This document shows, in pieces, positions 8,901-54,042 of a stretch of DNA of 64,000 nucleotides. The DNA lies in contig CAIMFV010000006.1 in NCBI GenBank assembly GCA_903840435.1, positions 22,415 through 86,414 of the forward strand, written 5' to 3'. Source of the DNA: an uncultured Caulobacterales bacterium. Its GTDB lineage: Bacteria > Pseudomonadota > Alphaproteobacteria > Caulobacterales > Caulobacteraceae. A program made the translations under genes and the position numbers. The notes beneath the pieces were generated by a model that made no database searches, was not told where the DNA came from, and was given only the letters and a program-made list of their open reading frames with translations. Every line of letters starts with the position of its first letter. The first letter of the stretch is position 1.

Positions 8901-9462
8901 TTTTGGTATAGGCCTCGCCCAGCGGGGTTTCGGGGTCGCGGGCGGCGGCGGAAAGGTATTGCCGCGCCCGGCGTTGCAACTCACCTGCGGCAACGTCGTC
9001 CAGCACAGAAAAGCCAGGAGATACGCCCGCTTCCAGCGGAAACTGGCGCAGGAGGCGTTCGCAAAAGGCGTGGATGGTTTGGATTTTCAGACCGCCTGGC
9101 GTTTCTAAGGCCTGGGCAAAGAGACGCCGTGCGCGGGACAGCGCAGTCGGATCCGTAATCGGCCGTTCCGCGCCGGAAAGGTCGGCCAATTCCATCGCCA
9201 GCGCGTCGTTATCAGCGACCGCCCACCCGCCGAGGCGCTCAAAAAGGCGCCTTTGCATCTCTGAGGCTGCGGCCTTGGTAAAGGTCAAGCACAGGATGGT
9301 TTCCGCCCTTGCGCCGGTGAGCAGCAGTCGCGCGACCCGATCCACCAAGGTCTTGGTCTTGCCGGAGCCAGCATTGGCGCTGACCGCCGCCGACCGATAG
9401 GGGTCGGCCCCGCGCCTCTGAGGTTCGGTAGCAAGCCGAGCTATGTCTTGGGGATCGGTCAT
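5977..9462 (-). CDS. addA: Double-strand break repair helicase AddA (UvrD/Rep superfamily 1 helicase + C-terminal nuclease)
   Basis: 1161 aa; Walker A GSGKT near N-term of SF1 helicase, C-terminal RecB-like nuclease region; adjacent to addB. Confidence 0.9.
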   Translation of the reverse strand: MTDPQDIARLATEPQRRGADPYRSAAVSANAGSGKTKTLVDRVARLLLTGARAETILCLTFTKAAASEMQRRLFERLGGWAVADNDALAMELADLSGAERPITDPTALSRARRLFAQALETPGGLKIQTIHAFCERLLRQFPLEAGVSPGFSVLDDVAAGELQRRARQYLSAAARDPETPLGEAYTKMSVSLDWKAFEDLFDTLIQRRQQIATFLEDAAAKGGLDAAIAKLLDQDALHDPSQLEQEALADGVFDEARYLWAAANLARVKEISSVKRGAALQAVIEARRNGRFEPEAVWKIFFTEEGEGSEFKHLSTKSVDPAVRYWLIEEQARLVAARNRIRAARIGQRTRDLLYLGAAYGQIYAAVKDDFGALDFADLIAKASALLDDQPAAAWVLYKLDGGVDHILVDEAQDTAPDQWRILNALTSEFFAGLGARASNTLRSIFLVGDKKQSIFSFQGAAPREMALQTQRLIERAGDAGSLFDDIELTVSWRSTPEVLAFVDAVFADTDLAAHLSPGAEVQVPAHVAYRQSDHGTVDLWPLDIESPKPALTAWDNPMDAKGETSAVQRLADRVAEECKAIVHRGDAVRERSGALRPASYGDILILVRKRGEVFDTLLRTLKRENVPVAGADQLKLSDHLVFEDLRSLARFCLYPRDDLSLAEVLRSPLCDLDEVDLFDLAHPRQGSLYASLSTRAAERKRWKRALDFLSEAREQASRLTPFDFFTRLLGRADPDGYSLRRRYATRLGSEAEEALDAFIQQVLSAEARGVRDLEQLCAELERLRLTLKRELDEPKGEVRIMTAHGAKGLEAPIVFLPDTVFTKTPNQNVFFAEGGGVLLLEGSKTDCPAAAKIREQRTDAEAEETTRLLYVALTRARDRLILGGRKAFTSPVKGWRMALEAAASGPLADQWREMETPTGFRFQRFGVDPRPAPQSHLSEVAAPAAPSWLRNRAPADPPSAAYASPSTYAQTKRGPTPSPLAASAGGLGRFRRGDLIHRLFQLLPDLAITERQAAAERILNKETDLTPEHRKEMAAAALSVLNDARFAEVFGEGSRAEVAVAGGSPDLPPSLVISGRVDRMVIRPDRVLVVDFKTNRPAPDRIEAADPAYLMQMALYVAVLRAIFPSRKVEAALVWTDGPKLMPIPENLIVAKLSETRRNG

Positions 9463-12400
9463 TCGTCCCCCTCATCGCTGGCCCATTCCTTCAGTCGCGC
9501 CAGATGGTCATAGTCGCTCGGCGTCTTGAGAAACTGCATGGCCGTTCGCGACGTATAAGGCGCCTCGCGCTGGTCGAATTCGGCAACCTTTTTTTGCAGG
9601 CCCGCCAAGGCTTCCTCAGCAAGGCTTGTGGCGGTGGCGTCATCCTTGTCGCGACGCACCACTTTTCCGGGTGGGTCTCTGCCGGTCAAGCGAACATAGT
9701 CGAGGTGGCCTGGGGTTGCGCCCTTGATCCTGTCAAAGCCATCGGCCTGGACGATGGCGGCGGTGAGCGACAACTGGGGTGAAAAACCGGATTTGATCTG
9801 CGCAAAGGTGGGCTCCTGACCGGTCTTGAAATCGATGATGTCGGCGCGCCCCTCCTTGACCTCGATCCGGTCGGCCCGTGCTGTGACGGTAAACTTCCCC
9901 CCCGGCGCGGCGAAGGTCAGACGGCCTGTGCATTCTACGTCTACCCGAACGCCCATCCCACGGCGCTGGCGCTCGAAGTCGCTTATCCACGCGCCGATCT
10001 GACGCCCTAGCGCCGCTTCTCGCACCAAATCGACGTCGGGCGCCCCGGCCGCCTTCAAGGCGTCGAGATAGAGGGTGGTGAAGTGCAGTTCGGCGTCGGC
10101 CCCCGGCCAGGGCCAGCCCTTGGCGAAGCTTTCCGTTGCCGCGTGGATGGCGGTGCCGCGCACGCGATTGTCAAACGCCCGGTCGGGTCTGTCGAGGGCG
10201 CGTAGCCGCAGAATATAGCGGGCATAAACTGCATAGGGGTCGCGGGTCCAGGTTTCGACAGCCGTGACGGGCAGTTCGCGCGGGCGGACGCCAACCGGCG
10301 GCGTTGGCTCAGGCCGCCGCGCTGGTTCCAGGGCGGCAGGAGCCGTCTCCAGCGCACGATCAAGCTCGGCCTGGGCCGCCATCAGATCGGGTCGCGTGGA
10401 CAGGCCGATTTTGGCACCGCGCGCCAAGGTCTCGAGCCGCCACAGCCATCGCGACTTGACAGCGGGCGCACCGTCACGCCGCTCGCGGGTTATCAGCAGC
10501 ACGTCTGGCGCGCACGCGGCCTGGGCGAAGTCGTGGGCGGAGAGGCCGATCTTGCGTTCGGGCGTCGGCAGGTCGAGCGCTTTGCGCATGGCCCGCGACA
10601 GAAACGGGTCAAGACCACCTGGGCGCGGCCAAACGCCTTCTTCCAGTCCAGCCAGAATAACCAAATCCGCCCGGACCATCCGGCCTTCCATGGCGCCGAG
10701 GATACGTAAGCGTGGGTGGGTGGCGCCGCCGACTCGCACGGTCTCTTCGGCAAGCCATTGGTCGAGCAGTCTGGCAAAGGCCTCTGGCCCGCAGGCGGGA
10801 AGCACATGGCCATCGCGTAAAATTGTTGCCACGAGGGCCGCCGCCGATTCGCCTTCTGGGCCCGCCCAAAGCTCGCCGGTCACGCCTTTTTCGTTGACAG
10901 CTAGGATTTCAACCGCCTCGACCAGTTGGCGTATCGCCTCTGGCGCGGCTGCCTTGCCGGCGGCAAAGGCCGAAGCGGCGTGGGCAATGGCGGTGAGCAA
11001 GTTTTCGGCACAGCCAAGCGCGTCTGGGCTACTGGCAAGGCGCGCCCGCAGTTGATCGGCATCGCGGGGGCGAGGGCCCCGCAGGGCCAAGCGCTCGACC
11101 TCGCGGGCCTGCCCGGCCAATGTCAGCTCCGCTGCGCCGAGCCGAGTGAAGCGATGCTTGAGCACGGCTAAGAGCAGCACCGGATTGAGCGGGTCGCAGG
11201 CGGCGCGGGCGACGAGGCTCAATATCACGCCGACGGGAAATTCAGCCAAGGCCCGACCAGCCGAATCGTCGGGCGTAATCCCCCATCGCGAGAGGGTGGC
11301 GCTGACCCTGCGGCTCAAAGCGGCGTCGGGCGTCAAAAGGGCCGCCGTCCGACCGGGGGTTTCAAGCGTCTCCCGCAGGGCAAGCGCGATCAATTCCGCC
11401 GCCACGCGATCATCGCGCGCAGCCATCACCTTCAATCCCGCCAATCCTTCGGCCACAGGATCGACGCCTGCCTTCTCACCCTCGGCACGAAGCCCTGCAA
11501 TGGCGGAGAGCCAATCATCTGTCGCTTCGGCGGGGCGCAAGGCCTCGTTCACCACCTTGCGGCGAGACCGCCCGGCCACGGCTTGCGCCGGGGGCTCATG
11601 GCTTGGCCAGACATTGACTTGCGCTCTCGTGACACCGACCCGCTCAAGCAAGCGTTTCAGCGCCAATTGGGGGTGGGCGTCACCGATTTGGTCCCAGACG
11701 GTCTCGTCGAGGTCCTGATCGAGGCCCGGAAGCACCACCAAACCTTGCGGGGCCGACGCGACCACCTTGAGGAGGGCCGCCGTCGCCGGAGCCGAGCCCG
11801 TTGAACCCGCCGCGATCAGCGGACGCGTCGGCGGGGCAAGCGTCCAGGCCTCGGCCAGAGCGCGCAACAGCCGCGTCCGCCGCTCCATCACATCAATCAG
11901 GCCAAGCGTCCGTAAGCGCTTGGGCCAAAGGTCGACCGCCAAGGCCAAGAGGCGTGAGGTTTTGCGCCAGTGTTCGGCCAGATCTGCCTCGACAAGGCGC
12001 TCTAACCGACCTTCAACTGAGACCTCTTCAATCTGGACGGAATCGAGAAAGCCTCCCAAGGCGTCCGCGAGTTCGAGTGCATGCCCGGTCGAGATGTCGT
12101 GCTGGTCGAGCACATGGGCGTTGTCACAGATCAATCGCGCCAGCTCGAAGCGCCGCCGTAGCGGACTGACGGCGGGGGGGAGATCAAGCGCGAGATCGCC
12201 AGGCTCAAATGGCGGCTCTCCGTCTTCTAAATCACCCAGAGCGCGAATTTGTGGCAGCAGGGTCGCCTGCCCGCCTGAGGCGGTGACGAAAGCCTCGGTC
12301 AGGGCGCGCATGCCACGACGGGTCGGGGTGAGCACAATAGCGTCCGACAGGGCCTCGGGCCCGATGGGCAACAGCGCGTCGACCAGGCCTTGCGCCAAAT

Positions 12401-12512
12401 CGACGACAAACGGGCGATGGGCAGGAATATTGAACCAGCGGAACGGCGCGCGAAACAGCCTGGGATAGAGGGGCTCCTCCAAAGGCAGGTTGGCCAGTCC
12501 AGAGCCGCTCAT
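9459..12512 (-). CDS. addB: Double-strand break repair protein AddB
   Basis: 1017 aa, 4-bp overlap with addA start, C-terminal PD-(D/E)xK / Fe-S region (RIDRIEV..DYKTG-like DFKTG); alphaproteobacterial addB-addA order. Confidence 0.85.
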   Translation of the reverse strand: MSGSGLANLPLEEPLYPRLFRAPFRWFNIPAHRPFVVDLAQGLVDALLPIGPEALSDAIVLTPTRRGMRALTEAFVTASGGQATLLPQIRALGDLEDGEPPFEPGDLALDLPPAVSPLRRRFELARLICDNAHVLDQHDISTGHALELADALGGFLDSVQIEEVSVEGRLERLVEADLAEHWRKTSRLLALAVDLWPKRLRTLGLIDVMERRTRLLRALAEAWTLAPPTRPLIAAGSTGSAPATAALLKVVASAPQGLVVLPGLDQDLDETVWDQIGDAHPQLALKRLLERVGVTRAQVNVWPSHEPPAQAVAGRSRRKVVNEALRPAEATDDWLSAIAGLRAEGEKAGVDPVAEGLAGLKVMAARDDRVAAELIALALRETLETPGRTAALLTPDAALSRRVSATLSRWGITPDDSAGRALAEFPVGVILSLVARAACDPLNPVLLLAVLKHRFTRLGAAELTLAGQAREVERLALRGPRPRDADQLRARLASSPDALGCAENLLTAIAHAASAFAAGKAAAPEAIRQLVEAVEILAVNEKGVTGELWAGPEGESAAALVATILRDGHVLPACGPEAFARLLDQWLAEETVRVGGATHPRLRILGAMEGRMVRADLVILAGLEEGVWPRPGGLDPFLSRAMRKALDLPTPERKIGLSAHDFAQAACAPDVLLITRERRDGAPAVKSRWLWRLETLARGAKIGLSTRPDLMAAQAELDRALETAPAALEPARRPEPTPPVGVRPRELPVTAVETWTRDPYAVYARYILRLRALDRPDRAFDNRVRGTAIHAATESFAKGWPWPGADAELHFTTLYLDALKAAGAPDVDLVREAALGRQIGAWISDFERQRRGMGVRVDVECTGRLTFAAPGGKFTVTARADRIEVKEGRADIIDFKTGQEPTFAQIKSGFSPQLSLTAAIVQADGFDRIKGATPGHLDYVRLTGRDPPGKVVRRDKDDATATSLAEEALAGLQKKVAEFDQREAPYTSRTAMQFLKTPSDYDHLARLKEWASDEGDE

Positions 12513-42380: not shown

Positions 42381-43325
42381 TCATGCCGATTGCGCAAACG
42401 CTTTCAACAACTGATGCGCGATGGCGACGGGAGGGGGGCAGAAGGCGCCTGCGAAGGTTCCGGCCATTAGCGACTTGGCCTCGTCTCGGGTGAACCAGCG
42501 CACGGCCTCGAGCTCGGTCTGGTCGGGATGGGCTTCGCCGTCCTCGATCTCGGCAATCAGCCCGATCATCAGCGAGTTTGGAAAGGGCCAGGGTTGAGAC
42601 GAATGGTAACGGACAGCCTTGGTGACGAGGCCTGCCTCTTCTTTCAACTCGCGGGCGCAGGCCTCTTCGATAGACTCGCCGGGCTCTAAAAAGCCTGCCA
42701 AGGCTGACCACATGCCCGTTGGCCAAACGGCTTGGCGGCCGACCAAACACTTGTCTCCGACCACGGGCAGCATGATGACGACCGGGTCGGTGCGTGGGAA
42801 ATGTTCAACCTGACAGGCCGGGCAGACCCGTTTCCAGCCGCCGTCAGCCACCTCGCTCGGTTGACCACAGGCGGCGCAAAACCGGTGGCGGCGACGCCAT
42901 TCAAACACGCCCTTAGCTGTGGCGGCAATGCCCGCCTCCTGGCCTGAGAGCACGGCGCCCAGCCCGCGCAATTCGCGAAAGACGCCAAAGCCGTTTAACG
43001 GGCCCTGGCTGGGATCGGCGGCGCCGTCCAAATCAATGGCGAAGACCGGCGTCTCCTTCCACAACCCAAGAAACAACAGGCGCTCAAGGCCACCCGCCAA
43101 CTCCTGGCCAAGGCCTGGGGCAATATAGGCCAGCCGGGGCGCTTGGGGCGGGCTCCCGGCAACGGTCTCTTCGACCAATATCTGACCATTCCACAGCGGT
43201 AGGGCCAAGGCGTCGGGATGGGCGAGCAGCTTGGCGACAACAGAAGGGTCGCTGCGTAATTCACTGGCGCGGTTCAAGGGATTGCCAGCGAACACATTGA
43301 TCAGGGACATGGTGAGACGCTCCAC
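42381..43325 (-). CDS. nudC: NAD(+) diphosphatase
   Basis: CxxC...CxxC zinc ribbon followed by Nudix box GFLEPGESIEEACARELKEEAG. Confidence 0.85.
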   Translation of the reverse strand: MERLTMSLINVFAGNPLNRASELRSDPSVVAKLLAHPDALALPLWNGQILVEETVAGSPPQAPRLAYIAPGLGQELAGGLERLLFLGLWKETPVFAIDLDGAADPSQGPLNGFGVFRELRGLGAVLSGQEAGIAATAKGVFEWRRRHRFCAACGQPSEVADGGWKRVCPACQVEHFPRTDPVVIMLPVVGDKCLVGRQAVWPTGMWSALAGFLEPGESIEEACARELKEEAGLVTKAVRYHSSQPWPFPNSLMIGLIAEIEDGEAHPDQTELEAVRWFTRDEAKSLMAGTFAGAFCPPPVAIAHQLLKAFAQSA

Positions 43326-43406: not shown

Positions 43407-44417
43407 TCAGCCCTTGGGGCGTCGCTTGTGTGGCTCACCCCGTTCGCGCGCTTCGGAGAGCAAAGGCTGATTGTCGAAAGTATAGCGCAGCAAGGTCGCC
43501 TGTTCGATATTGACCAGGATTCGACAGGCTGTGGCCGCTTCCTCCGGCGTTGGCGTCGGCCCAAAGGCGGCGGCAAGTTTCGGTGTATAGTTGTCGCATT
43601 GAGCACGCCGGTAGCGCACGAAGGCGGGCCCGCTCTGACGGAATTCGCGTTCTGCAATATCGACAAGGTTTTGGGCTTCATCCCAGTCGTCGAGCACCCG
43701 CCTTACCCGGCGTTTGGCGCTGGCGAGCCGCGCAAGACTAAGCTGCTCCTGGCGCTGCAAACGAGCTGATCGATCCTCGCTCGTGCCAACCCTCCGCCAG
43801 ATATCCACCAAACGATAGGGGCCGCGCGGGTCGTCGCGCCCTGACTTCACACGCATGGGAGCCATGCCGACGGTTTCACGCAGCATCGAGCGCCTGCGCA
43901 GGTCCATCCAAAATTGACAGGCCCAGACCGATCGCTCGATATGCCATCGGTTTCCGACAGCCGAATAACTCAGCCGGTCACAATTGGCGTTGCGAAGTCT
44001 CTCATAGGCTCGGCTGGCCCACATATCGGAACGCGCCAGGGCGTTGCGGGCCGGTAGGCTTGATGGCTGCGATTGGGCCAAGGACAAGATGGCGCGATTG
44101 ACGCGATCCAAATTTGGCGAAAAGTGCTGCTGAATCTCAAACAGGCATTTATCGATCCCAACCTCTGACAAAATTGGGCAACCCTTGACGTCCTCTAAAA
44201 TATCATAAGACTCTTTGTATAGAAATGGAGATTCCTTCATCAGATTTAGGCGTAATTCTTGACCATACAGTTTTGAAATTGGGAAAAAGGCGGCAAAAAT
44301 CGACAATAAAGCAAAGGTAATATTTGATTTATTTCTGATATGAGGCTGTAAAATTCTTGCATTGATCTGATTATATCCGAATATAATTCGTTCGATTGCC
44401 AGCTGTGTCGCCTTCAT
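43407..44417 (-). CDS. Family A paralog 0: secreted double Cys-pair DUF1311/LprI-like protein (candidate immunity/lysozyme-inhibitor-like)
   Basis: Start placed at MKATQ (ATG 44417); hydrophobic N-terminal anchor; C-terminal half about 80-90% identical to other A copies (AFVRYRRAQCDNYTPKLAAA..ACRILVNIEQATLLRY). Confidence 0.7.
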   Translation of the reverse strand: MKATQLAIERIIFGYNQINARILQPHIRNKSNITFALLSIFAAFFPISKLYGQELRLNLMKESPFLYKESYDILEDVKGCPILSEVGIDKCLFEIQQHFSPNLDRVNRAILSLAQSQPSSLPARNALARSDMWASRAYERLRNANCDRLSYSAVGNRWHIERSVWACQFWMDLRRRSMLRETVGMAPMRVKSGRDDPRGPYRLVDIWRRVGTSEDRSARLQRQEQLSLARLASAKRRVRRVLDDWDEAQNLVDIAEREFRQSGPAFVRYRRAQCDNYTPKLAAAFGPTPTPEEAATACRILVNIEQATLLRYTFDNQPLLSEARERGEPHKRRPKG

Positions 44418-44554
44418 TTTGTTGGCGAGGGGCGTGTCAGACGATCCAGTCGATTGGCGAGCGTTATTGCTCTTGCGGGCAGACTTGCCCTCTATGCTCG
44501 CAAGCGCGTCCGGCTGAAACCACCGCCGCCGACGGGGCGACTTTTGCCCCTCTT

Positions 44555-45484
44555 TCATCGCCTGTCGCCTCGGCTGTGACCCGGACCGCGATGGGATTGC
44601 GACATCAAGGTATGGTTGTCGAAAAAGAAGCGTAACAAGGTCGCCTCCTCGACATTGAGGAGGGTGCGGCACGCAATCGCCGCCGCCTCGGGGCTTGGCC
44701 CAAAGGCAAGGGCGGCGGCAAGTTTTGGCGTATAGTCCTCGCATTGCGCCTTACGGTAATGAAGAAAGGCTGGGCCACTACGATGAAAATCGCGCGCCGC
44801 CTTATCTACAAAATCTTGGTACTCGTCCCAGTCGTCCAGCACGCGTTGAACGCGAAGCTTGGCGCGCTGCAAACGTTGGAGGCTCAAAACTTCTTGGAAT
44901 CTCAAATTTTCCAATTGGTCCGGACCCGTTCCAACTGTGTACCACAGGTCCGCTAGGCGATAAGGACCGCGCGGCCGGTTGCGCCCAGGCCTGATCGGCA
45001 GCGGCGCATCCCCAACCGCTTCACGCAGGAGCGAGCGCCGGCGCAGGTCCAACCAAAATTGACACGCCCAGATGGATCGGGACGCGCGCCAGCGACTTCC
45101 GACGGCGGAATAACTCAGACGGTTACACGTGTCGTAACGGAAGTTTCGGTAGGCCTGGCCTGCCTTTTGTGCAGCGGACGATAAGGCGAGCTGGAGGGAA
45201 GCATCGCTTTGCTTGCTCAACGCATTGGCGAGGGTCCGTCGTTCGACCTTGTCGCGCATGGGCGAAAAATGCTGCGCAAGTTTGAGCAGGCATTGATCAA
45301 TGCCAACCTCGGAAAACGCGGGGCATCCCTGTACATCCGCCAGAACATCACCCGGCTCCAGGTACAGAAAGCGAACGTCTTCGCGTGATGATAGATGGAA
45401 TTTGAATGTAGTCGCGTGACAAATTGGCGAAAAGGAAGAAAATATCCATAAAATTATGAGAGTTATGTACAGGTATTTTTTCAT
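44555..45484 (-). CDS. Family A paralog 1: secreted DUF1311/LprI-like protein
   Basis: Signal peptide MKKYLYITLIILWIFSSFSPICHA encoded by AT-rich DNA; 4-bp overlap with family B gene upstream. Confidence 0.75.
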   Translation of the reverse strand: MKKYLYITLIILWIFSSFSPICHATTFKFHLSSREDVRFLYLEPGDVLADVQGCPAFSEVGIDQCLLKLAQHFSPMRDKVERRTLANALSKQSDASLQLALSSAAQKAGQAYRNFRYDTCNRLSYSAVGSRWRASRSIWACQFWLDLRRRSLLREAVGDAPLPIRPGRNRPRGPYRLADLWYTVGTGPDQLENLRFQEVLSLQRLQRAKLRVQRVLDDWDEYQDFVDKAARDFHRSGPAFLHYRKAQCEDYTPKLAAALAFGPSPEAAAIACRTLLNVEEATLLRFFFDNHTLMSQSHRGPGHSRGDRR

Positions 45485-46245
45485 GGATACAATCGAATAT
45501 AATCAAGTATATATTGAATTTTTTCTGGATAATGTGTTAGTGTTTTTGTATTATATTTTTGTTGTAACAAATATTTATCTATATTTTTCCAGCTCAAAAT
45601 CACCCGTTCGACCCTCGCCTTTTGCACCTTCACCCTTTGGTGCGGGCGCAGAAGGGATGATCCATTCAGTCGGCGGAGGTGATCGGTGGTGCTGCCATAG
45701 ATTTTGGCGATTTTATCGAGCGTGTCGCCTTTGGCAGCCTCGACTTCAAATATTGGCGCGCCCGGTGCAATGACGGTGCGCATATCCGACTGCGAGGCTA
45801 TGGAAAGGACGTATCCTATGCCCGCGCGAATATTGTCCTGCGGATTGGAGGAGGCGCGGGCTGCTAAGCCGTTTTGCCATTGTGGGGGGATGATCACCGT
45901 ACCAGCGCCCTCGGGTTTGAGGAGGTCGCGCAAGCCCCCGTCGCCCGAATTACCGATATGCATGGGGCGGCTGTTCCACGTGACGTCTCCCGGGTCGTTT
46001 TCCGTCCACATCATCGCCTTCATCAGGGCGAAATCTGGCGAGCGATAGCCCGCGACGCCGCGCAGATTTCGGTCGTACTCGCCGATGGCGCTGCGAATGG
46101 CGCTCTCGTGATCGTGCCAATGCGGTCCTGGTACAAATGTGTCTGTACCGTCCATCCATCCGGACAGCCCGTCTGAAATATTAGACGGGCGTGCAGGGCG
46201 TTGCACTTTTAAGTTGGCGCGATGTTTCAGCGTTGTTTCGACCAT
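45481..46245 (-). CDS. Family B copy 2: SLT-type lytic transglycosylase-like domain + C-terminal LysM; no signal peptide (candidate peptidoglycan-degrading effector)
   Basis: LMKAMMWTENDPGD...RPMHIGNSGD...QDNIRAGIGYVL resembles SLT motifs (AIAWQESxFNP / GLMQI / ENIRAGxxYL); VEAAKGDTLDKIAKIYGSTTDHLRRLNGSS = LysM. Confidence 0.75.
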   Translation of the reverse strand: MVETTLKHRANLKVQRPARPSNISDGLSGWMDGTDTFVPGPHWHDHESAIRSAIGEYDRNLRGVAGYRSPDFALMKAMMWTENDPGDVTWNSRPMHIGNSGDGGLRDLLKPEGAGTVIIPPQWQNGLAARASSNPQDNIRAGIGYVLSIASQSDMRTVIAPGAPIFEVEAAKGDTLDKIAKIYGSTTDHLRRLNGSSLLRPHQRVKVQKARVERVILSWKNIDKYLLQQKYNTKTLTHYPEKIQYILDYIRLYP

Positions 46246-46332
46246 GGGAGCTCCAGATTTTACGGAGCGCGCGACGCAAATCTGCAGTCAAGCGCGGGAA
46301 ACCCTAACCGTTAGCCTGACTTGCGACGGTCT

Positions 46333-46354
46333 CGCGACGTGACACGTCGTCGCG
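46333..46354. repeat. Conserved palindrome CGCGACGTGACACGTCGTCGCG (stem CGCGACG/CGTCGCG) 3' of family A gene, 5' of family B gene
   Basis: Near-identical copies at 47445-47466 and 48814-48835; related palindromes at about 50122-50134 and 51950-51962. Confidence 0.6.
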
Positions 46355-46363
46355 CATGTAGGT

Positions 46364-47284
46364 CTACCGGCGGCTGCGCGTGTCGCCGGGCTTGCGGTCT
46401 TGCGACATCAAGGGTTGGTCCTGGAAGTCGTAGCGCAGCAAGGTCGCCTCTTCGATATTGACCAAGATACGACAGGCCATGGCGGCCTCGTCCGGCATTG
46501 GCGTCGGTCCAAAGGCGGCGGCGAGTTTCGGGGTATAGTCGTCGCATTGAGCATGGCGGTAGCGCATAAAGGCGGGCCCGCTCTGACGGAAGTCGCGTTC
46601 TGCAATGTCGACAAGGTGTTGGGCTTCATCCCAGTCGTCCAGCACCCGTCTTACCCGGCGTTTGGCGCTGGCGAGCCGCGCAAGACTAAGCTGCTCCTGG
46701 CGCTGCAAACGGGCCAGTCGATCCTCACCCGTCCCGACCCTCCGCCAAATATCTACCAAGCGATAGGGGCCATGTGGTCCGAAACGCTTCGCCTTCACCC
46801 GCAGGGGGGCCTCGCCCACAGTTTCTCGAAGCAAGGATCGGCGATGCAGGTCCATCCAGAATTGGCAGGCTAAAATCTCTCGGATCGTATGCATCCGATT
46901 TCCGACGGCCGAATGACCCAAGCGATTGCAATTGATAAATCGAAGCCTGTCATAGGTCATCGCGGCACGGTGATCTGAGCGGGAAAGGGCGGCGTGATCG
47001 GCCGGACTTAATCCTCGTATTTGCGCCTTTGACAGCACCGCCCTCTCGGTATGCTTGAGGCTGAGAGAAAAGTGCTGCTGAATTTCGGCCAGACATGCAT
47101 CAATCCCAGTTCCAGAGAAGCTAGGGCAATCACGGACATCGTCAAGCACGTCAAAAGATTCTACATAAAGAAAGGGAGATTCGGTTGCAGATTTTACACT
47201 GAAACTGGATGTCATTGCGCGCGACGAAGGGCAATAACAAAGGATAATACATAAAATAATTTGGATTTTTTGGTAAATGTTCAC
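46364..47284 (-). CDS. Family A paralog 2: secreted DUF1311/LprI-like protein
   Basis: Signal peptide MNIYQKIQIILCIILCYCPSSRA; conserved C-terminal half. Confidence 0.75.
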   Translation of the reverse strand: MNIYQKIQIILCIILCYCPSSRAMTSSFSVKSATESPFLYVESFDVLDDVRDCPSFSGTGIDACLAEIQQHFSLSLKHTERAVLSKAQIRGLSPADHAALSRSDHRAAMTYDRLRFINCNRLGHSAVGNRMHTIREILACQFWMDLHRRSLLRETVGEAPLRVKAKRFGPHGPYRLVDIWRRVGTGEDRLARLQRQEQLSLARLASAKRRVRRVLDDWDEAQHLVDIAERDFRQSGPAFMRYRHAQCDDYTPKLAAAFGPTPMPDEAAMACRILVNIEEATLLRYDFQDQPLMSQDRKPGDTRSRR

Positions 47285-47444
47285 GGACTAAATTTCACAA
47301 GCTTGCCAAGGTGTTTCTGGCCCATGTCAAGGTGTTTCTGGCCCATGTGTCGTTTTTCCCTCCATCCATGGGGCAATTCGGTTGAAATAATGTGAGGAGG
47401 GAACGAGGGAGTTTGCGAGCAGCAAACATGGTCGAGTTTGGTCT

Positions 47445-47466
47445 CGCCACGTGACACGTCGTCGCG
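47445..47466. repeat. Copy of conserved palindrome (CGCCACGTGACACGTCGTCGCG) downstream of family A paralog 3
   Basis: Sequence identity to 46333-46354 motif. Confidence 0.6.
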
Positions 47467-47475
47467 CAGCTTGGT

Positions 47476-48495
47476 TTAGCGCCGGTTGCGACTTTCACCG
47501 GGCTTGCGGTCTTGCGACATCAGGGGTTGGTGCGCGAAATCGTAGCGCAGCAGGGTCGCCTGTTCGATATTGACCAGGACGCGGCAGGCTGTGGCGGCTT
47601 CCTCCGGCGTTGGTGTCGGCCCAAGGGCGGCGGCGAGTTTCGGGGTATAGTCGTCGCATTGGGCGTGGCGGTAGCGCACGAAGGCCGGCCCGCTCTGACG
47701 GAAGTCGCGGTCGGCAATATCGACAAAATCTTGCCATTCCTCCCAATCGTCGAGCACGCGGCGGACCCGTCGCCGGGCGCTGGCCAATCGCCTCAGGCTG
47801 GCGGCTTCCTGGGATTTCAATTTCGATAATCGACCCGCTCCCGCGCCCGCGAGGCGCCAGATATCGGTCAAGCGATAGGGGCCGTGCGGACCGCCGTGGC
47901 CCGGCTTGATCCGCATCGGCGCCTCACCGGCCGTTTCTTGCAGCAGCGACCGCCGATGCAGGTCCATCCAAAATTGGCAGGCATAAACCCGCCTCAGCGT
48001 ATGCATCGTCGCGCCAGCCGCTGCGTGGCTCAGGCGATCACAATTGCTGTTCCGAAGCGCAAAATAGCTTGAAACGGCTTGCTTCTGAGACAGAAGGAGG
48101 GCGTCTTGCCCGCCAGTCCCGGTTGCACTTTGGGTGGCGCGACCCAGCACCTCTGAATCGACACGGATCAACCGTCCCGCAAGCCGTTGTTGGATTTCTT
48201 CAAAGCAAGCGTCATAATCGGTTTCAGAATATATTCCGCAACCCGTGACGTCGTTAATGACATCCCATGGTTCCCTATAGATAAATGGTGAATGGTAAAG
48301 GGCAGTCATATTTGGATGCCAGAGCTCTACATGCTTAGACAAAGAGATCGAATGGCAACACACTGAAATAATAATTATGGAAAAATATATTAGACTATGG
48401 ATATATTTTAATGTAATCGAGAATATATTGCAATTTTGCCGCGTAATCAACATCTGGATTCCCATTATAGTTTGATTGGAGGGAATTTTTATCAA
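47476..48495 (-). CDS. Family A paralog 3: secreted DUF1311/LprI-like protein (start uncertain; ORF overlaps remnant B gene by about 100 nt)
   Basis: Hydrophobic N-terminal region IYFSIIIISVCCHS; C-terminal half almost identical to paralog 4. Confidence 0.7.
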   Translation of the reverse strand: MIKIPSNQTIMGIQMLITRQNCNIFSITLKYIHSLIYFSIIIISVCCHSISLSKHVELWHPNMTALYHSPFIYREPWDVINDVTGCGIYSETDYDACFEEIQQRLAGRLIRVDSEVLGRATQSATGTGGQDALLLSQKQAVSSYFALRNSNCDRLSHAAAGATMHTLRRVYACQFWMDLHRRSLLQETAGEAPMRIKPGHGGPHGPYRLTDIWRLAGAGAGRLSKLKSQEAASLRRLASARRRVRRVLDDWEEWQDFVDIADRDFRQSGPAFVRYRHAQCDDYTPKLAAALGPTPTPEEAATACRVLVNIEQATLLRYDFAHQPLMSQDRKPGESRNRR

Positions 48496-48772
48496 TTGGT
48501 CTCCAGCCGAATATAACTCTCATAACTTTCGCCTTCTGCACTTTCACCTTTTGATGAGGGCGTAGAGCGGACGAGCCATTAAGTCGCCTTAAGTGATCGG
48601 TCGTGCTGCCATAGTGTCGGGCGATGGCGTCAAGTGCGTCACCTTTCGCCGCCTCGATCTCACAAATGCGCGTGCAGGGCGTTGCACTTTTAAGTTGGCG
48701 CGTCGTTTCAGCGTTGTTTCGACCAAGGGAGCTCCAGATTTTACGGAGCGCGCGACGCAAATCTGTAGTCAA
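48395..48772 (-). pseudogene. 5'-truncated family B remnant retaining only the LysM/C-terminal part
   Basis: EAAKGDALDAIARHYGSTTDHLRRLNGSS...QYILDYIKIYP matches C-terminal 100 aa of intact B copies; SLT part missing; conserved B 5' leader still present at 48748-48797. Confidence 0.6.
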
Positions 48773-48813
48773 GCGCGGGAAACCCTAACCATTAGCCTAG
48801 CTTGCAATAGTCT

Positions 48814-48835
48814 CGCCACGTGACATTGCGTCGCG
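48814..48835. repeat. Copy of conserved palindrome (CGCCACGTGACATTGCGTCGCG) downstream of family A paralog 4
   Basis: Sequence similarity to 46333-46354 motif. Confidence 0.55.
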
Positions 48836-48844
48836 CTCCATCGA

Positions 48845-49762
48845 CTACCTCCGGTTGCGACTTTCACCGGGCTTGCGCTCTCGCGACATCAGGGGTTGAT
48901 CCTCGAAGTCGTAGCGCAGCAAGGTCGCCTGTTCGATATTGACCAGGATGCGACAGGCTGTGGCGGCTTCCTCCGGCGTTGGCGTCGGCCCAAGGGCGGC
49001 AGTGAGTTTCGGGGTATAGTCGTCGCATTGAGCGCGCCGGTAACGCACAAAGGCGGGCCCGCTCTGACGGAAGTCGCGGTCGGCAATATCGACAAAATCT
49101 TGCCATTCGTCCCAATCGTCGAGCACGCGGCGGACCCGTCGTCGGGCGCTGGCTAATCGCCTCAGGCTGGTGGCTTCCTGGGATTTCAATTTCGATAATC
49201 GATCCGCTCCCGCGCCCGCGAGGCGCCAGATGTCGGTCAAGCGATAGGGGCCGTGCGGACCGCCGCGGCCCGGCTTGATCTGCATGGGCGCCTTACCAGC
49301 CGTTTCTTGCAGCAGCGACCGCCGATGCAGGTCCATCCAAAATTGGCAGGCGTGAACCTGCCTCAGCCTATGCATGGTTCCGCCAGCCGCTGCGTGGCTC
49401 AGCCGATCACAATTGATCAATCTTAGCTGCTTATAGGCGCGGGCCGCCCGCCTTCCAGACAAGATGAGAGCCGTCGTTGCGGAAAGGTCGGTTAGCCGCG
49501 TCTGCGCCTTCGACAGTATCGCTTGATCAAGGCGGCCCAATTTCGGTTCAAAACGGTGTTGAATTGCAATGAAGCATCTGTCTATGCCAGCTTCAGAATA
49601 GGATGGGCAACCTTCAATATCATTTAATATATCGTAGTATTCTCTGTATAAAAAGGGCGACTCTCGCAAAAAATTGAGACGGAGCTCCGGATTATGGGCG
49701 TCAACTGGGGAAAAATGGGAAAATGATATAAATATAAATAGAATAAAAATTGCAAATTTCAT
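48845..49762 (-). CDS. Family A paralog 4: secreted DUF1311/LprI-like protein
   Basis: Signal peptide MKFAIFILFIFISFSHFSPVDA; C-terminal half near-identical to paralog 3. Confidence 0.75.
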   Translation of the reverse strand: MKFAIFILFIFISFSHFSPVDAHNPELRLNFLRESPFLYREYYDILNDIEGCPSYSEAGIDRCFIAIQHRFEPKLGRLDQAILSKAQTRLTDLSATTALILSGRRAARAYKQLRLINCDRLSHAAAGGTMHRLRQVHACQFWMDLHRRSLLQETAGKAPMQIKPGRGGPHGPYRLTDIWRLAGAGADRLSKLKSQEATSLRRLASARRRVRRVLDDWDEWQDFVDIADRDFRQSGPAFVRYRRAQCDDYTPKLTAALGPTPTPEEAATACRILVNIEQATLLRYDFEDQPLMSRERKPGESRNRR

Positions 49763-50167
49763 GGGTAAAATCCGAGATGTTCAAGTTAATATTTCCATAT
49801 TCATCTAGATGTGACGCTATGCGCCCTTAAGTGATGTCTGGGGTGGAGCGGGGACGTTCCATTGAATGCCCGGCGAGGGGCGGCGGTGCTGCCATGGGTT
49901 TGGCTGATCCCATCCGAGGTATCCCCGAGACCTCCCGCCCCAGTGCCTTTGGGCCTAGTGGTTAAGGGCGCGAGGGGCAATTGGTCGATACTTTTGCCAA
50001 GCGAGTCGGGGATCACGGGTAAAGATGCCGCCCCTCTTAGATCGCCAGCCGTGCTGAGGCCTTCCAACAGCTTGGGGGAAGATATCTGAACCTCCATGGA
50101 CCATCGTTCGTCCAGATGACATGACGTCGCGTCACTCAAATTCCGAAGGTCGTCGAGCGGGCGGAGG
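49763..50167 (-). pseudogene. Highly decayed family B remnant (no intact reading frame)
   Basis: Nucleotide similarity to B LysM region (ggtgctgccatgggtttggctga vs ggtgctgccatagattttggcga of intact copy) but frameshifted; occupies the position where a B gene precedes each A gene. Confidence 0.4.
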
Positions 50168-51145
50168 TTATCCGTTTTGACGTCGTGAGTGTCCCTCGCC
50201 GCGCTTGCGCGCCTCAGAAAGCAGGGGTTGTCCGTCAAACGTGTAGCGCAGCAGGGTCGCCTCTTCGATATTGACCAGGATGCGACACGCCATGGCCGCT
50301 TCCCTCGGCGTCGGCCCCCTGCCAAGAGCGGCGGCAAGTTTTGGTGTGTAGTCGTCGCATTGGGCCTGACGGTAGCGCGCCAGGGCGGGCCAGCTTTGCC
50401 GGACGTCCTTCTCTGTGAGTTCAAAATATTTTTGCATCTCATCCCAGTCGTCCAGCACCCGCCTCACCCGCCGTTTGGCGCGCGCGAGCCGCGCGAGGCT
50501 GAGCCGTTCTTGAGCCTGTAAACGGGTCAATCGGTCGTCGCCCGAACCGGCGCGCCGCCAAATGTCCGCCAAGCGGTAGGGGCCGTGCGGGCCGTTACGC
50601 CTGGGCTTTACCCGCATGGGGGGCTCGCCATCCGTTTCTCGCAGCAGAGACCGTCGATGTAGGTCCATCCAAAATTGGCAGGCCCAAACCCCGCGCAGGG
50701 TATGCATTCTGCCGCCGTTTGATGAGCGTTGGAGATGATCACAATTTATCTGGCGTAGGTGAAGATAGGCCAGGGAGGCGCTTTGTTTTGCCTTTGACAG
50801 GATGTCTAGGGATGCTTTTTCGCCTGCCTCAGAGGCGGCGTTAGCGAAAACCTCTGCATCGACCTGGTTCAACTTGTCGGAAAGATGTTGGACAATCTCC
50901 TCAAAACAGGCATCGAGATCGCCTTCAGAATAAATTCCACATCCCGGTACATCATCAATTACGTCGTCCGGCTCTTGATAGAGAAATTTCGATTCATCTA
51001 ATAATTTAAAATCAGGGTGCCACAAGGCAATATGTTTCGCCCAAGCTGGACTCTGATACATAAATAAAAAACAAAGACAAAACAAAACGCCGATTTTAAG
51101 GGTATATTTTAATGTAATCAAGTATATATTGAACTTTTTCTTCAT
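50168..51145 (-). CDS. Family A paralog 5: secreted DUF1311/LprI-like protein; start overlaps 3' end of family B copy 1 by about 50 nt in another frame
   Basis: Signal peptide KIGVLFCLCFLFMYQSPAWA; conserved C-terminal half. Confidence 0.75.
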   Translation of the reverse strand: MKKKFNIYLITLKYTLKIGVLFCLCFLFMYQSPAWAKHIALWHPDFKLLDESKFLYQEPDDVIDDVPGCGIYSEGDLDACFEEIVQHLSDKLNQVDAEVFANAASEAGEKASLDILSKAKQSASLAYLHLRQINCDHLQRSSNGGRMHTLRGVWACQFWMDLHRRSLLRETDGEPPMRVKPRRNGPHGPYRLADIWRRAGSGDDRLTRLQAQERLSLARLARAKRRVRRVLDDWDEMQKYFELTEKDVRQSWPALARYRQAQCDDYTPKLAAALGRGPTPREAAMACRILVNIEEATLLRYTFDGQPLLSEARKRGEGHSRRQNG

Positions 51146-51860
51146 AGTGCGCTCCTGCTTTTCGATTGTATTTATCTTTCAAGAGTTTTTTATCAATTGT
51201 GTCCCAGCCGAATATCACTCTCATAACTTTCGCCTTCTGCACTTTCACCTTTTGATGAGGGCGTAGAGCGGACGATCCATTTAGTCGCCTTAAGTGATCT
51301 GTCGTGCTGCCATAGTGTCGGGCGATGGCGTCAAGTGTGTCACCTTTCGCGGCCTCGATCTCAAATATGGGTGCACCTGGCTCCACAACCGTCCTGAGGT
51401 CCGACTGCGAGGCCACGACAAGGACATAGCCAATCGCTGCGCGAATGTTATCCTGCGGGTTCGAAGTGGCACTCGCGGATAACCGTTCCTGCCACTGAGC
51501 TGGGACGATGATCTTTCCCGCTCCGTTTGGCCTGAGAACGTCGCGCAAGCCGGGATCACCGGAATTACCAATTTGCATGGGCCGTCTGTTCCAACTCGGA
51601 TCGCCGGGGTCGTTTTCCGCCCAAATTATGGCTTTCATCAACGAAAAGTCGGGGGAGCGATATCCCGCGACGCCGCGCAGATTTCGATCATAGTCTTTGA
51701 TGGTCGTCCGAATCTCACTTTCATAATCCCGCCAGTGCGGTCCGGGAACGTTTCTATCAACGCCGTCCATCCACTTCGCCAAACCCGGCGGAACATTGGC
51801 CGAGCGCACGGGTCGTTGCACCTTGGGTTTTGCAGGATGTTTAACCGCTGTTTCGGCCAT
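51096..51860 (-). CDS. Family B copy 1: SLT-type lytic transglycosylase-like + LysM protein, no signal peptide; first gene of the array
   Basis: Start placed at MAETAVKHPAKPKVQRP (ATG 51860) matching start of copy 2; ORF-track extension to 52214 would overlap SRP RNA and is rejected. Confidence 0.75.
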   Translation of the reverse strand: MAETAVKHPAKPKVQRPVRSANVPPGLAKWMDGVDRNVPGPHWRDYESEIRTTIKDYDRNLRGVAGYRSPDFSLMKAIIWAENDPGDPSWNRRPMQIGNSGDPGLRDVLRPNGAGKIIVPAQWQERLSASATSNPQDNIRAAIGYVLVVASQSDLRTVVEPGAPIFEIEAAKGDTLDAIARHYGSTTDHLRRLNGSSALRPHQKVKVQKAKVMRVIFGWDTIDKKLLKDKYNRKAGAHYEEKVQYILDYIKIYP

Positions 51861-52038
51861 TGGGGCTCCAGAGCTCATGGAGCGCGCGGCGCAATTTTGC
51901 GACCCCGCGCACGAAACCCTAATTTCTAGCCTCCCTCGCATCGCCCTTGCCATGTGACATGGCGTCGCGGCGCGGTGGTGATGGCGCGGGATGCGAGCGC
52001 TTACGGCCCTTGCTAAGCGCAGGCTTGCGCGCGATATA

Positions 52039-52144
52039 GGCGGTGGAGACTGGCGCCGGGCGCAGCCCTCGCCAACCCGGTCAGGTCCGGAAGGAAGCAG
52101 CCGTAACGAGTTTCGCGGCGGGTCGGCGTCCAGTCTCCACCCCA
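52039..52144 (+). ncRNA. ffs: Signal recognition particle RNA (4.5S-type SRP RNA)
   Basis: Contains conserved domain IV sequence GGUCAGGUCCGGAAGGAAGCAGCC; terminal helix GGUGGAGACUGG...CCAGUCUCCACC; canonical position immediately upstream of dnaX. Confidence 0.8.
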
Positions 52145-52167
52145 CACTCGCAAGCCGAAATAGGGCG

Positions 52168-54042
52168 ATGGCCGCAGACGATCCGACGCCCGACATCGAC
52201 GCCGACGACCCCAAGGCTTTGGACGGTCCAGACGCGCGCGATGACTTGACCTCTGATATGTTCGGCGGCCCGCCACCGAAAGAGGAGCCGCCGGTCGAAC
52301 TTCAGGCCGAACCGCGCGAACCGCTGACTGACCCATCCGGCGCCGCCTATCAGGTCTTGGCGCGCAAATACCGGCCGCGCACCTTTGAGGACCTGATCGG
52401 CCAAGAGGCCATGGTGCGCACCCTTACCAATGCGTTTGCGTCGGGTCGGATTGCCCATGCCTTTATGCTGACCGGGGTGCGCGGCGTCGGCAAGACCACC
52501 ACGGCGCGCTTGCTGGCGCGGGCCTTGAACTATGAGACCGACCAGATTAACCGCCCCTCAGTGGCCTTGAGCCACGAAGGCCGCCATTGCCGGGCCATTA
52601 TCGAAGGTCGGCACATGGATGTGCTGGAGCTCGACGCCGCCAGCCGCACCAAGGTTGATGAGATGCGCGAGCTGTTGGACGGCGCGCGGTATTCGCCGGT
52701 GGAGGCGCGCTATAAGGTCTATGTCATCGACGAAGTGCACATGCTGTCGACGGCCTCGTTCAATGCCTTGTTGAAGACCCTGGAAGAGCCGCCGCCGCAC
52801 GTCAAATTCATCTTCGCCACTACCGAAATTCGCAAGGTGCCGGTGACCATTTTGTCGCGCTGTCAAAGATTTGATCTGCGCCGGGTCGAGCCGGACGTGT
52901 TGATCCAGCGGCTGAAATCGATTTGCGACGCTGAAGATGTTCGGGTCGCCGAGGAAGGGCTGGCCCTGATTGCCCGGGCTGCGGAAGGCTCGGTGCGCGA
53001 CGCCCTGTCGCTACTCGATCAAGCCATTGTTCAGACCGATCGCGGCCAGACCACGCCCGCCGCCGTGGTGCGCGACATGTTGGGGCTCGCGGACCGCGCT
53101 GCGACCATTGCCCTCTTTGAGCAGGTAATGGCGGGCGCCGCCGACGCAGCGCTGCAGCAGTTTCGCAGCCTCTATGCCTTTGGGGCCGATCCGGTCGTGG
53201 TGGTCAATGATCTGATGGATCACGCCCACGGGGCTTCGGTGTGCAAGATGCTCGGGCCTGATGCCTTGGTCTTGCCCAAGGACCAAGCGGCCCGTTTGGC
53301 GGCCTTGGGCGCTGAGGCCTCGGCGGGCGCCTTGTCGCGGGTTTGGCAAATGCTGTTGAAAGCTCATGACGAAGCCCGCCGCGCCCCCGATCCAAAGGCT
53401 GCGGTCGAGATGGCGCTGATCCGCATCTGTTACGCCGCTGACCTACCCGGCCCGGAAGAGGCGTTGAAACGCCTGCGTGGCGGTGAAGATCCAGCCCGTG
53501 TGCTGGCCCAGGAGGGCCCGTCGCCTGCGGGGGGCGCACGGGGGGCGTCAAGTTCTGGGCTGGGCGGAAATGCAGCCCTGGCCCGCAGCACGGTTGCGCC
53601 TGCGCCGCGGGCGGAAGCCAAGCGGGTACTAAACGCCTTTCAAGATGTGGTGCGCCTGATTGAAGACAAACGCGACGTCACATTGAAACACGATGTCGAA
53701 CGGTTTGTTCGCTTGGTCGACTTTAAGCCCGGACTGATCACCTTTGAACCTGCGCCGGGCGCGCCCGCCAACCTCACTCAGCGCCTGACCGGACGGCTGC
53801 GCGAGTGGACGGGCGATCGGTGGATGGCCGAGATCAAGGGCGGCGGAACCGAAAGCACCTCCGAACGGGAGCGCCGGGAAGAGCGCGACGCCCGCACGGC
53901 GCTCGAGGCCGAGCCCTTTGTCCAGGCGGTGTTTGAGGCTTTTCCGGGGGCCGAGATCATCGCGTTTCGCCAGCGTCCGGCCGTGGCGGCGACGCCTGAG
54001 ACTGAAACCGGCGATGAGGGTGATGAGGGAGACGCCGAATGA
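52168..54042 (+). CDS. dnaX: DNA polymerase III subunits gamma/tau
   Basis: Walker A GVRGVGKTT, DEVHML, SRC box (LSRCQRF); start placed at MAADDPTPD downstream of ffs. Confidence 0.9.
   Translation: MAADDPTPDIDADDPKALDGPDARDDLTSDMFGGPPPKEEPPVELQAEPREPLTDPSGAAYQVLARKYRPRTFEDLIGQEAMVRTLTNAFASGRIAHAFMLTGVRGVGKTTTARLLARALNYETDQINRPSVALSHEGRHCRAIIEGRHMDVLELDAASRTKVDEMRELLDGARYSPVEARYKVYVIDEVHMLSTASFNALLKTLEEPPPHVKFIFATTEIRKVPVTILSRCQRFDLRRVEPDVLIQRLKSICDAEDVRVAEEGLALIARAAEGSVRDALSLLDQAIVQTDRGQTTPAAVVRDMLGLADRAATIALFEQVMAGAADAALQQFRSLYAFGADPVVVVNDLMDHAHGASVCKMLGPDALVLPKDQAARLAALGAEASAGALSRVWQMLLKAHDEARRAPDPKAAVEMALIRICYAADLPGPEEALKRLRGGEDPARVLAQEGPSPAGGARGASSSGLGGNAALARSTVAPAPRAEAKRVLNAFQDVVRLIEDKRDVTLKHDVERFVRLVDFKPGLITFEPAPGAPANLTQRLTGRLREWTGDRWMAEIKGGGTESTSERERREERDARTALEAEPFVQAVFEAFPGAEIIAFRQRPAVAATPETETGDEGDEGDAE

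Follow-up and report, generated by a model that had tools for sequence, protein, structure and literature searches.

The question raised by the locus studied here is why six neighbouring genes of one family resemble each other closely in their 3' halves and poorly in their 5' halves, and what the encoded proteins might be for. The genes lie within a 64,000-nucleotide (nt) stretch, hereafter the window, of contig CAIMFV010000006.1 from an uncultured Caulobacterales bacterium (assembly GCA_903840435.1). The gene from which the analysis started, A3 (46364..47284, minus strand), encodes a tandem-LprI protein of 306 amino acids (aa). An earlier inspection of the letters alone, to which we refer as the sequence-only reading, had taken this family, denoted A, for duplicated LprI (DUF1311) domains resembling lysozyme inhibitors, and had attributed the contrast between the halves to diversifying selection or to recombination. 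We propose that the locus is an effector/immunity array in which members of a second, interleaved family, B, would be the toxins and family A the immunity proteins, the contrast between the N- and C-terminal halves resulting mainly from gene conversion; we put the probability of this reading at about 0.65.

A tblastn search of the window with A3 returned exactly the six copies that had been counted by eye, all on the minus strand and all with intact open reading frames (ORFs), the paralogs showing 53-67% overall identity to A3. The other five are A1 (43407-~44417; the start is uncertain and could be the ATG at 44417 or a TTG further downstream), A2 (44555-45484), A4 (47476-~48465), A5 (48845-49762) and A6 (50168-51145). 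A2 is the most divergent paralog, with about 60% identity to each other copy in the C region. By their N-terminal parts, A4 and A6 are related and represent an alpha type, A5 represents a beta type, and A1 is beta-like. The A3 frame opens with GTG, one codon downstream of an in-frame stop, and begins, as do the other copies, with a hydrophobic, signal-like segment (residues 1-24). Six cysteines are invariant across the family (C53, C64, C119, C140, C247 and C271 in A3 numbering). Both motifs quoted in the sequence-only reading are present in the multiple alignment: the C-terminal AFVRYR block, which takes the form AF.RYR.AQCD.YTPKLAAA..P.P..AA.ACR.L.N.E.ATLLR in six of six copies, with slight deviation in A2 and A6, and the N-terminal GCPxxSExGIDxC block, which generalizes to (G/D)C(P/G)xxSxxxxDxC. 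In public gene calls, A3 is shortened to 176 aa (P0005; L001:9352-9882) and lacks its N domain and signal peptide, probably an effect of the GTG start; A1 is made too long, at 383 aa, and A4 is given 325 aa. Just 5' of the A3 start (47300-47340, minus strand), two copies of the short direct repeat CCAGAAACACCTTG are spaced about 20 nt apart. With 11 relatives, none of them assigned to a Pfam family, among the 5.8 billion protein clusters covered by a word-indexed search, the family is very rare.

Are both halves of these proteins LprI domains? Direct scans gave limited information. An NCBIfam scan of the six copies yielded nothing useful, a PDB sequence-profile search with the family found no match at E up to 10, and sub-threshold PF07007 scores were obtained for three of the six copies (13.4 bits, E 0.1; 11.2; 10.9), A3 itself giving no match. 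A profile built from 11 members of the family and compared by HMMER to 1.84 billion representative proteins matched 30 proteins and reached members of PF07007, with E down to 2.4e-14, through both halves. The remote matches fall either on the C half (profile positions ~188-297) or on the N half (~49-159), and all nine that were checked are clear PF07007 proteins (E 1e-7 to 1e-25). Profile comparison by hhalign to 23 LprI proteins that adjoin homologs of B, all belonging to PF07007, likewise found similarity for both domains, the C domain scoring a probability of 97.1% (E 5.9e-11) and the N domain, compared alone, one of 93.5% (E 2.3e-7) with all four of its cysteines aligned. By these profile comparisons, both halves of family A are LprI-like, as the sequence-only reading had recognized.

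An AlphaFold (AF2) model of A3 (predicted local distance difference test score, pLDDT, 82.7; predicted template modelling score, pTM, 0.81) consists of two three-helix units separated by a Pro/Gly-rich linker, and the predicted fold agrees with the helical bundle of the solved DUF1311 structure 3GI7. The N-terminal LprI-like domain (residues ~50-155; 46820..47137, minus strand) comprises helices 58-88, 94-127 and 133-155, and its cysteines C53, C64, C119 and C140 match the LprI pattern of a helix-1 pair and a helix-2/helix-3 pair. The C-terminal LprI domain (residues ~189-290; 46415..46720, minus strand; helices 189-217, 222-258 and 264-287) has lost the helix-1 pair and retains only the second, C247/C271. 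The second, weaker Cys-pair block that had been noticed in the N-terminal half is indeed present; it is, however, not the counterpart of the C-terminal pair but the helix-1 pair of a complete four-cysteine domain, and hhalign places the true counterpart of C247/C271 at C119/C140. Judging from the sequences, the family A proteins are probably periplasmic and disulfide-bonded. Compared to LprI proteins of PF07007, such as M. tuberculosis LprI, P. putida PP0307 (PDB 3GI7) and Salmonella ScwA, family A scores below the gathering level, its domains stand in tandem with a conserved Pro/Gly-rich linker, its C domain lacks the helix-1 Cys pair, and it is linked to a putative bacterial toxin rather than to a host lysozyme.

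The C domain holds one further signature. In LprI proteins that are linked to B homologs, an invariant Trp is followed by Asp-Glu (W71-D72-E73). The equivalent in family A, D216-D217-W218-(D)-E220, belongs to an invariant DDW(D)E motif that in A3 occupies the C-domain hairpin between helices 1 and 2, and 3gi7, an LprI structure without B linkage, aligns FGDE at this position. Because the W-D-E signature is common to the family A C domain and the B-linked LprI proteins, we regard the C domain as the counterpart of stand-alone immunity proteins. This point was missed by the sequence-only reading: it is the conserved C domain, not the variable N domain, that matches single-domain immunity proteins elsewhere.

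What, then, accompanies the A genes? The sequence-only reading recognized the duplication of A and missed a second family, interleaved with the first. B3 (45481..46245, minus strand) and B1 (51096..51860, minus strand) are intact, encode proteins of 254 aa that are 71% identical, and show a lysozyme/lytic-transglycosylase-like fold with an inserted LysM domain, the latter also found by Pfam. Lys76, Trp80 and Glu82 are invariant within a KAMxWxE motif, and neither an N-terminal hydrophobic segment nor a signal peptide or lipobox is present. Thus, B has the fold of a peptidoglycan hydrolase and a catalytic-type acid but no signal peptide, whereas its partner A has one. In PHROGs, B was matched only in the LysM segment, weakly, to an endolysin family, with no other sign of a phage. 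The two families are tightly packed: the B3 stop overlaps A2 by 4 nt, and B1 and A6 share 50 nt at the 3' end of B1.

The remaining B copies are in decay. B' (48395..48772, minus strand), which directly precedes A4 on the same strand, is an internal-deletion pseudogene in which residues 1-19 are joined to 161-254, with the catalytic lobe lost (tblastn pieces 48726-48670 and 48679-48398). A decayed remnant just 5' of A5 and overlapping its start (49726..49926, minus strand; tblastn E 3e-4) comprises the LysM and C-terminal part, with in-frame stops, and keeps the LysM motif GDTxDxIxxxxGST...NG. A possible second remnant 5' of A1 (44325..44510, minus strand) is weak (tblastn E 0.1), and its position matches the B-to-A junction seen elsewhere. 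Six intact A genes therefore stand against two intact B genes, one internally deleted B and one clear and one weak remnant. Decay of B copies while all A genes are intact and under purifying selection, with ratios of nonsynonymous to synonymous distances (dN/dS) below 0.5, is the pattern of orphan immunity. We also considered the array as three triplets of one B, one alpha-type A and one beta-type A, and rejected this arrangement: given the B remnants upstream of A5 and possibly of A1, the triplet is treated as a derived state. The distribution of remnants suggests that each A gene was originally preceded by a B gene of its own.

Is the pairing of B with an LprI protein peculiar to this locus? 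With a single B protein as the query, no relatives were obtained; a scan of 185,579 species genomes with the B-family alignment yielded 80 B-homolog loci, mostly in Betaproteobacteria, with some in Gamma- and Alphaproteobacteria. In at least 29 of the 80, the B homolog is directly followed by an LprI-type gene encoding a protein of about 145 aa with a signal peptide and four cysteines, the reading frame of which begins at the B stop codon or overlaps it; 29 is a lower bound, some of the other loci being left unclassified by our simple ORF rule. Each of the 23 B-linked LprI proteins that were scanned belongs to PF07007. The pairs are spread across the three proteobacterial classes, with B. ubonensis as a clear example, and include Enterobacterales such as Erwinia (L041), Atlantibacter (L049) and Buttiauxella (L063). 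In one uncultured member of Burkholderiaceae, the gene after the B homolog (L025:5693-6802) encodes 369 aa that include two stretches of PF07007, so tandem-LprI partners of B occur beyond family A, possibly with an independent origin. Upstream of B homologs, no family other than Hcp (PF05638) occurs more than three times, Hcp accounting for 4 of 69 same-strand ORFs; we verified hcp directly upstream of B in Massilia (L016), Telluria (L035) and L029.

At 17 further loci (L020, L022, L033, L034, L038, L040, L042, L047, L050, L069, L072, L074, L075, L077, L078, L079 and L083), the B homolog is followed by an unrelated protein of ~141-155 aa with a signal peptide, about four cysteines and the motif 'FTGxFxGTGRACSG...TIEW'. 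Four members that were scanned gave no significant Pfam match (best E 0.065-0.09, far below the cut-off). Its sequence features suggest a second immunity family, not described so far, for B-type effectors.

The nearest precedent is a pair from the SPI-19 island of Salmonella Dublin, SED_RS06235 (290 aa, LysM with an N-terminal transglycosylase) and SED_RS06230 (146 aa, signal peptide, PF07007 LprI), which behaved as effector and immunity protein in interbacterial competition assays (PMC8867033). The likeness to the pair described here is one of architecture: in both, a LysM-bearing, lysozyme/transglycosylase-like protein without a signal peptide is followed on the same strand by an LprI protein with one, and this is also the architecture of the B-homolog loci with a downstream LprI gene. 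The array differs from the Salmonella pair in that its putative immunity protein has 306 aa and two domains that fall below the Pfam threshold, in that six immunity-type genes accompany two intact effector-type genes, and in that no genes of a type VI secretion system (T6SS) were found within the 64-kb window. LprI has been linked to immunity in other settings as well: two LprI-domain orphan immunity genes were reported in a T6SS hcp island of Pantoea (PMC9796082), and, for WHIX effectors, LprI is named among immunity domains (PMC12135965). The array shares with orphan immunity arrays (Vibrio cholerae, PMC5361080; Pantoea, PMC9796082) the excess of immunity genes over effectors, the effector remnants beside intact immunity genes, and the variation of content between strains. 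It differs from them in being built from one paralog family that exchanges 3' halves, rather than from unrelated genes stacked after effector displacement, and in lying outside any recognizable T6SS cluster. With the Tge/Tse3 effectors and their Tgi/Tsi3 immunity proteins (PDB 4KT3, 4LUQ), no sequence relationship is detectable; B has an inserted LysM, and the LprI helical bundle is, so far as these searches show, a fold unrelated to that of Tgi/Tsi3.

How did the contrast between the halves of family A arise? Among the six copies, mean identity is 26% in the signal-peptide region, 42% (range 30-54%) in the mature N region (alignment columns 45-158) and 71% (range 58-91%) in the C region (columns 201-314). 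Divergence along the paralogs is therefore non-uniform, and the gradient described by the sequence-only reading is real; the figures it gave, about 30-40% and 85-95%, are off, the latter range being reached only by A4-A5 (91%) and A3-A1 (85%). In a sliding window, identity is lowest, at 28-29%, in alignment columns 91-130. This most variable stretch (A3 residues ~73-112; 46949..47068, minus strand) lies in the N domain and runs from the end of helix 1 through the helix1-helix2 hairpin into the start of helix 2. In most pairs, identity steps up at about residues 117-140, inside the N domain and off the domain boundary, which puts the linker, together with helix 3 of the N domain, on the conserved side.

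Diversifying positive selection would account for such a gradient if the N domain were a fast-evolving specificity module aimed at variant toxins and the C domain a slow scaffold. The least conserved stretch is the structural counterpart of the W-D-E hairpin in the C domain, and the N half of one protein from a related strain (P0006) has no nucleotide match in the window, both of which speak for this explanation. The distances point elsewhere. In codon alignments with Nei-Gojobori distances, dN/dS between paralogs is 0.14-0.42 in the N part, where the synonymous distance dS is 0.97 to >2.7 and saturated or undefined, and 0.07-0.27 in the C part, and remains below 0.45 in every region. In the C domain, dS is 0.2-1.1 for all pairs without A2, and the drop can be seen within single pairs, from 0.97 (N) to 0.195 (C) for A4-A5 and from 2.4 to 0.34 for A3-A1. 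The low dS implies that the C halves are alike through recent shared DNA ancestry, and not only through stronger constraint.

Recombination leaves more specific traces. Maximum chi-square breakpoints are significant in all 15 pairs (permutation p = 0 in 300) and their positions, ~117, ~178 and ~205-223, differ by pair: nucleotide identity rises from ~45% to 91-97% at about residue 117 in A4-A5 and from ~70% to 90-98% at about residue 178 in A3-A1, and to 87-93% at about residues 205-223 in A3-A5 and A1-A5. The clearest gene-conversion tract (47441..48046, minus strand) includes the 3' part of A4 and 35 nt past its stop and is 92% identical over 606 nt to 48810-49415 in A5; the 3' two-thirds of A4 show 91-97% nucleotide identity to A5, and the 5' parts of the two genes only ~45%. 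The neighbour-joining trees are incongruent, with A4, A6 and L87g2, from the related strain, grouped by the N part (87-90% bootstrap), and A4, A5 and L87g1 (99%) and A1, A3 and L87g2 (95%) grouped by the C domain. Of the two causes that had been offered from the sequence alone, recombination is thus borne out.

The related strain is represented by a contig from another metagenome (L087). It covers the same dnaX-side locus with a different gene content: remnants of B1 and A6, an A5 ortholog, P0006, a full-length B at the position of B', and an A4 ortholog. The C half of P0006 is A3-like. The A5 ortholog (P0003) and the A4 counterpart diverge uniformly along the gene (dN 0.03-0.06; omega, that is dN/dS, 0.17-0.56), without an N-terminal excess (N-domain omega 0.17-0.35). 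Between A3 and its ortholog P0001, the C domain has changed most (16%), ahead of the N part (5.4%) and the middle (1.4%). Of the 15 changes in the C domain, at least six (H223D, E229D, D249N, M263T, M269T and E279Q) are to residues of paralogs in the window, the expected signature of gene conversion. These results speak against ongoing rapid evolution of the N terminus and for repeated exchange of 3' halves among paralogs. Accordingly, diversifying selection as the cause, the other proposal of the sequence-only reading, appears unlikely. On the sequence evidence, the contrast stems mainly from gene conversion or other recombination between paralogs, homogenizing 3' halves and 3' flanks, and the same data argue against rapid positive selection at the N terminus and for the preservation of old, distinct N-terminal lineages, the alpha and beta types.

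These observations can be combined into a model of an effector/immunity array. Under this model, B would be an enzyme of ~28 kDa that combines a lysozyme/lytic-transglycosylase fold and an invariant catalytic-type Glu with a LysM domain serving as a peptidoglycan anchor. With no signal peptide, B would need a dedicated exit route, most likely as Hcp-carried cargo of a T6SS; a protein of 28 kDa is small enough for that. By analogy with the loci where hcp precedes B, a T6SS link could be expected for the source genome too. Once delivered, B would cut peptidoglycan in the periplasm of a neighbouring cell. Family A would be exported to the periplasm and act there as the immunity partner, its C-terminal LprI domain binding and blocking B via the W-D-E hairpin; the N-terminal domain would be an extra LprI module, the target of which the model leaves undefined. 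The array would have grown by duplication of B-A units, several B copies then decaying while the A genes were kept, and retention of orphan A genes fits a role in protection from the toxins of relatives.

An extension of this model would give both domains a target. The C domain would neutralize the resident B through the W-D-E hairpin, the N domain, through its variable hairpin, would neutralize lysozyme-like toxins of competitors, and recombination would shuffle the N modules among copies with a common C module. We consider such two-headed, modular immunity a tentative proposal, with the odds clearly against it; if true, it would provide a repertoire of immunity specificities from few parts.

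Several observations weigh against the array reading or limit its reach. No A copy reaches the gathering threshold of PF07007 (22 bits) in a Pfam scan. Saturation of dS in the N part makes dN/dS between paralogs unreliable, and site-specific positive selection may act in the N-domain hairpin. Hcp was not found in the 64-kb window by tblastn, nor was any T6SS gene, the other ORFs being housekeeping among the top 25 families listed, and most B-homolog loci are without linkage to T6SS genes. The Salmonella study reported a small effect (1.5-fold) and did not demonstrate secretion by the T6SS (PMC8867033). The binding of B by A, and the C rather than the N domain as the interface, are points that we infer. 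Finally, a 308-aa relative of family A (P0066; L090:8001-8927), which falls in the 90% cluster of P0009, itself 45% identical to A3, is solitary: it lies between genes for a hexapeptide transferase and a glutathione S-transferase (GST), with flagellar genes nearby and no B gene within 8 kb. Such a gene fits an orphan immunity gene and also a function independent of B.

A function within the producing cell is the next alternative. Family A could act in the periplasm to regulate or inhibit peptidoglycan hydrolases of the cell itself, with B a housekeeping cell-wall enzyme. ScwA, a periplasmic LprI-domain protein with two disulfide bridges, modulates the levels of MltD and Slt (PMC7933661), B has a lytic-transglycosylase fold, and the locus lies among housekeeping genes. 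However, without a signal peptide or lipobox, B could not reach the cell's own sacculus by Sec; unlike housekeeping genes, those of the array are amplified, partly decayed and variable from strain to strain; GC content is lower in the array than in the flanks; and Hcp is linked to some B homologs. Taken together, these features make regulation of the cell's own hydrolases improbable. Inhibition of foreign lysozymes, of a host or predator, as by M. tuberculosis LprI, with the adjacency to B incidental, would agree with the homology to LprI and the probable periplasmic location, but we think it very improbable, given that the B-LprI pair is conserved in overlapping or adjoining frames at 29 or more loci in three proteobacterial classes, that the C domain bears the W-D-E of B-linked LprI proteins where the unlinked 3gi7 aligns FGDE, and that ScwA, likewise an LprI-domain protein, is reported to play no part in lysozyme resistance (PMC7933661).

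The proposed effector/immunity array (43.4-51.9 kb) lies in an otherwise ordinary neighbourhood, between nudC (42381-43325) and dnaX (51991-54042). Its GC content is 0.53-0.58 (44000-52000) compared to 0.60-0.65 in the flanks, which fits horizontal acquisition or AT-biased turnover. Terminator-like sites in the array are no more common than in shuffled sequence, and the promoter/terminator scan was uninformative. The rest of the window encodes housekeeping functions (PGI, pantothenate synthesis, ArgG, FolD, AddAB-like nucleases and DnaX/YbaB/RecR). Two large adjoining minus-strand ORFs at 5980-12512 are assumed to be an AddAB-type pair; a window-wide scan, which gives no positions, assigned a PD-(D/E)XK nuclease to two ORFs and a UvrD helicase domain to one.

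Part of this picture is already known, namely the kind of system, in which a LysM-bearing, lysozyme-like effector is paired with an LprI immunity protein, and the existence of immunity-gene arrays in general. New are the divergent, rare tandem-LprI family, its six-fold expansion alongside decaying effectors, and a resolved mosaic evolution that mimics hypervariability. The locus ties a very rare family, previously without Pfam assignment, to the LprI lysozyme-inhibitor superfamily and, through B, to a widespread and barely studied pair of a LysM-bearing lysozyme-like effector and an LprI immunity protein, and the W-D-E hairpin offers a concrete, testable candidate for the inhibitory contact. 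That gene conversion in one half of a gene can mimic hypervariability of the other calls for caution with scans that read N/C contrasts as the mark of an arms race. If the proposed roles of A and B are correct, the array would be a clean natural example of how immunity arrays evolve, with effectors decaying, immunity genes persisting and conversion evening out one half of the latter.

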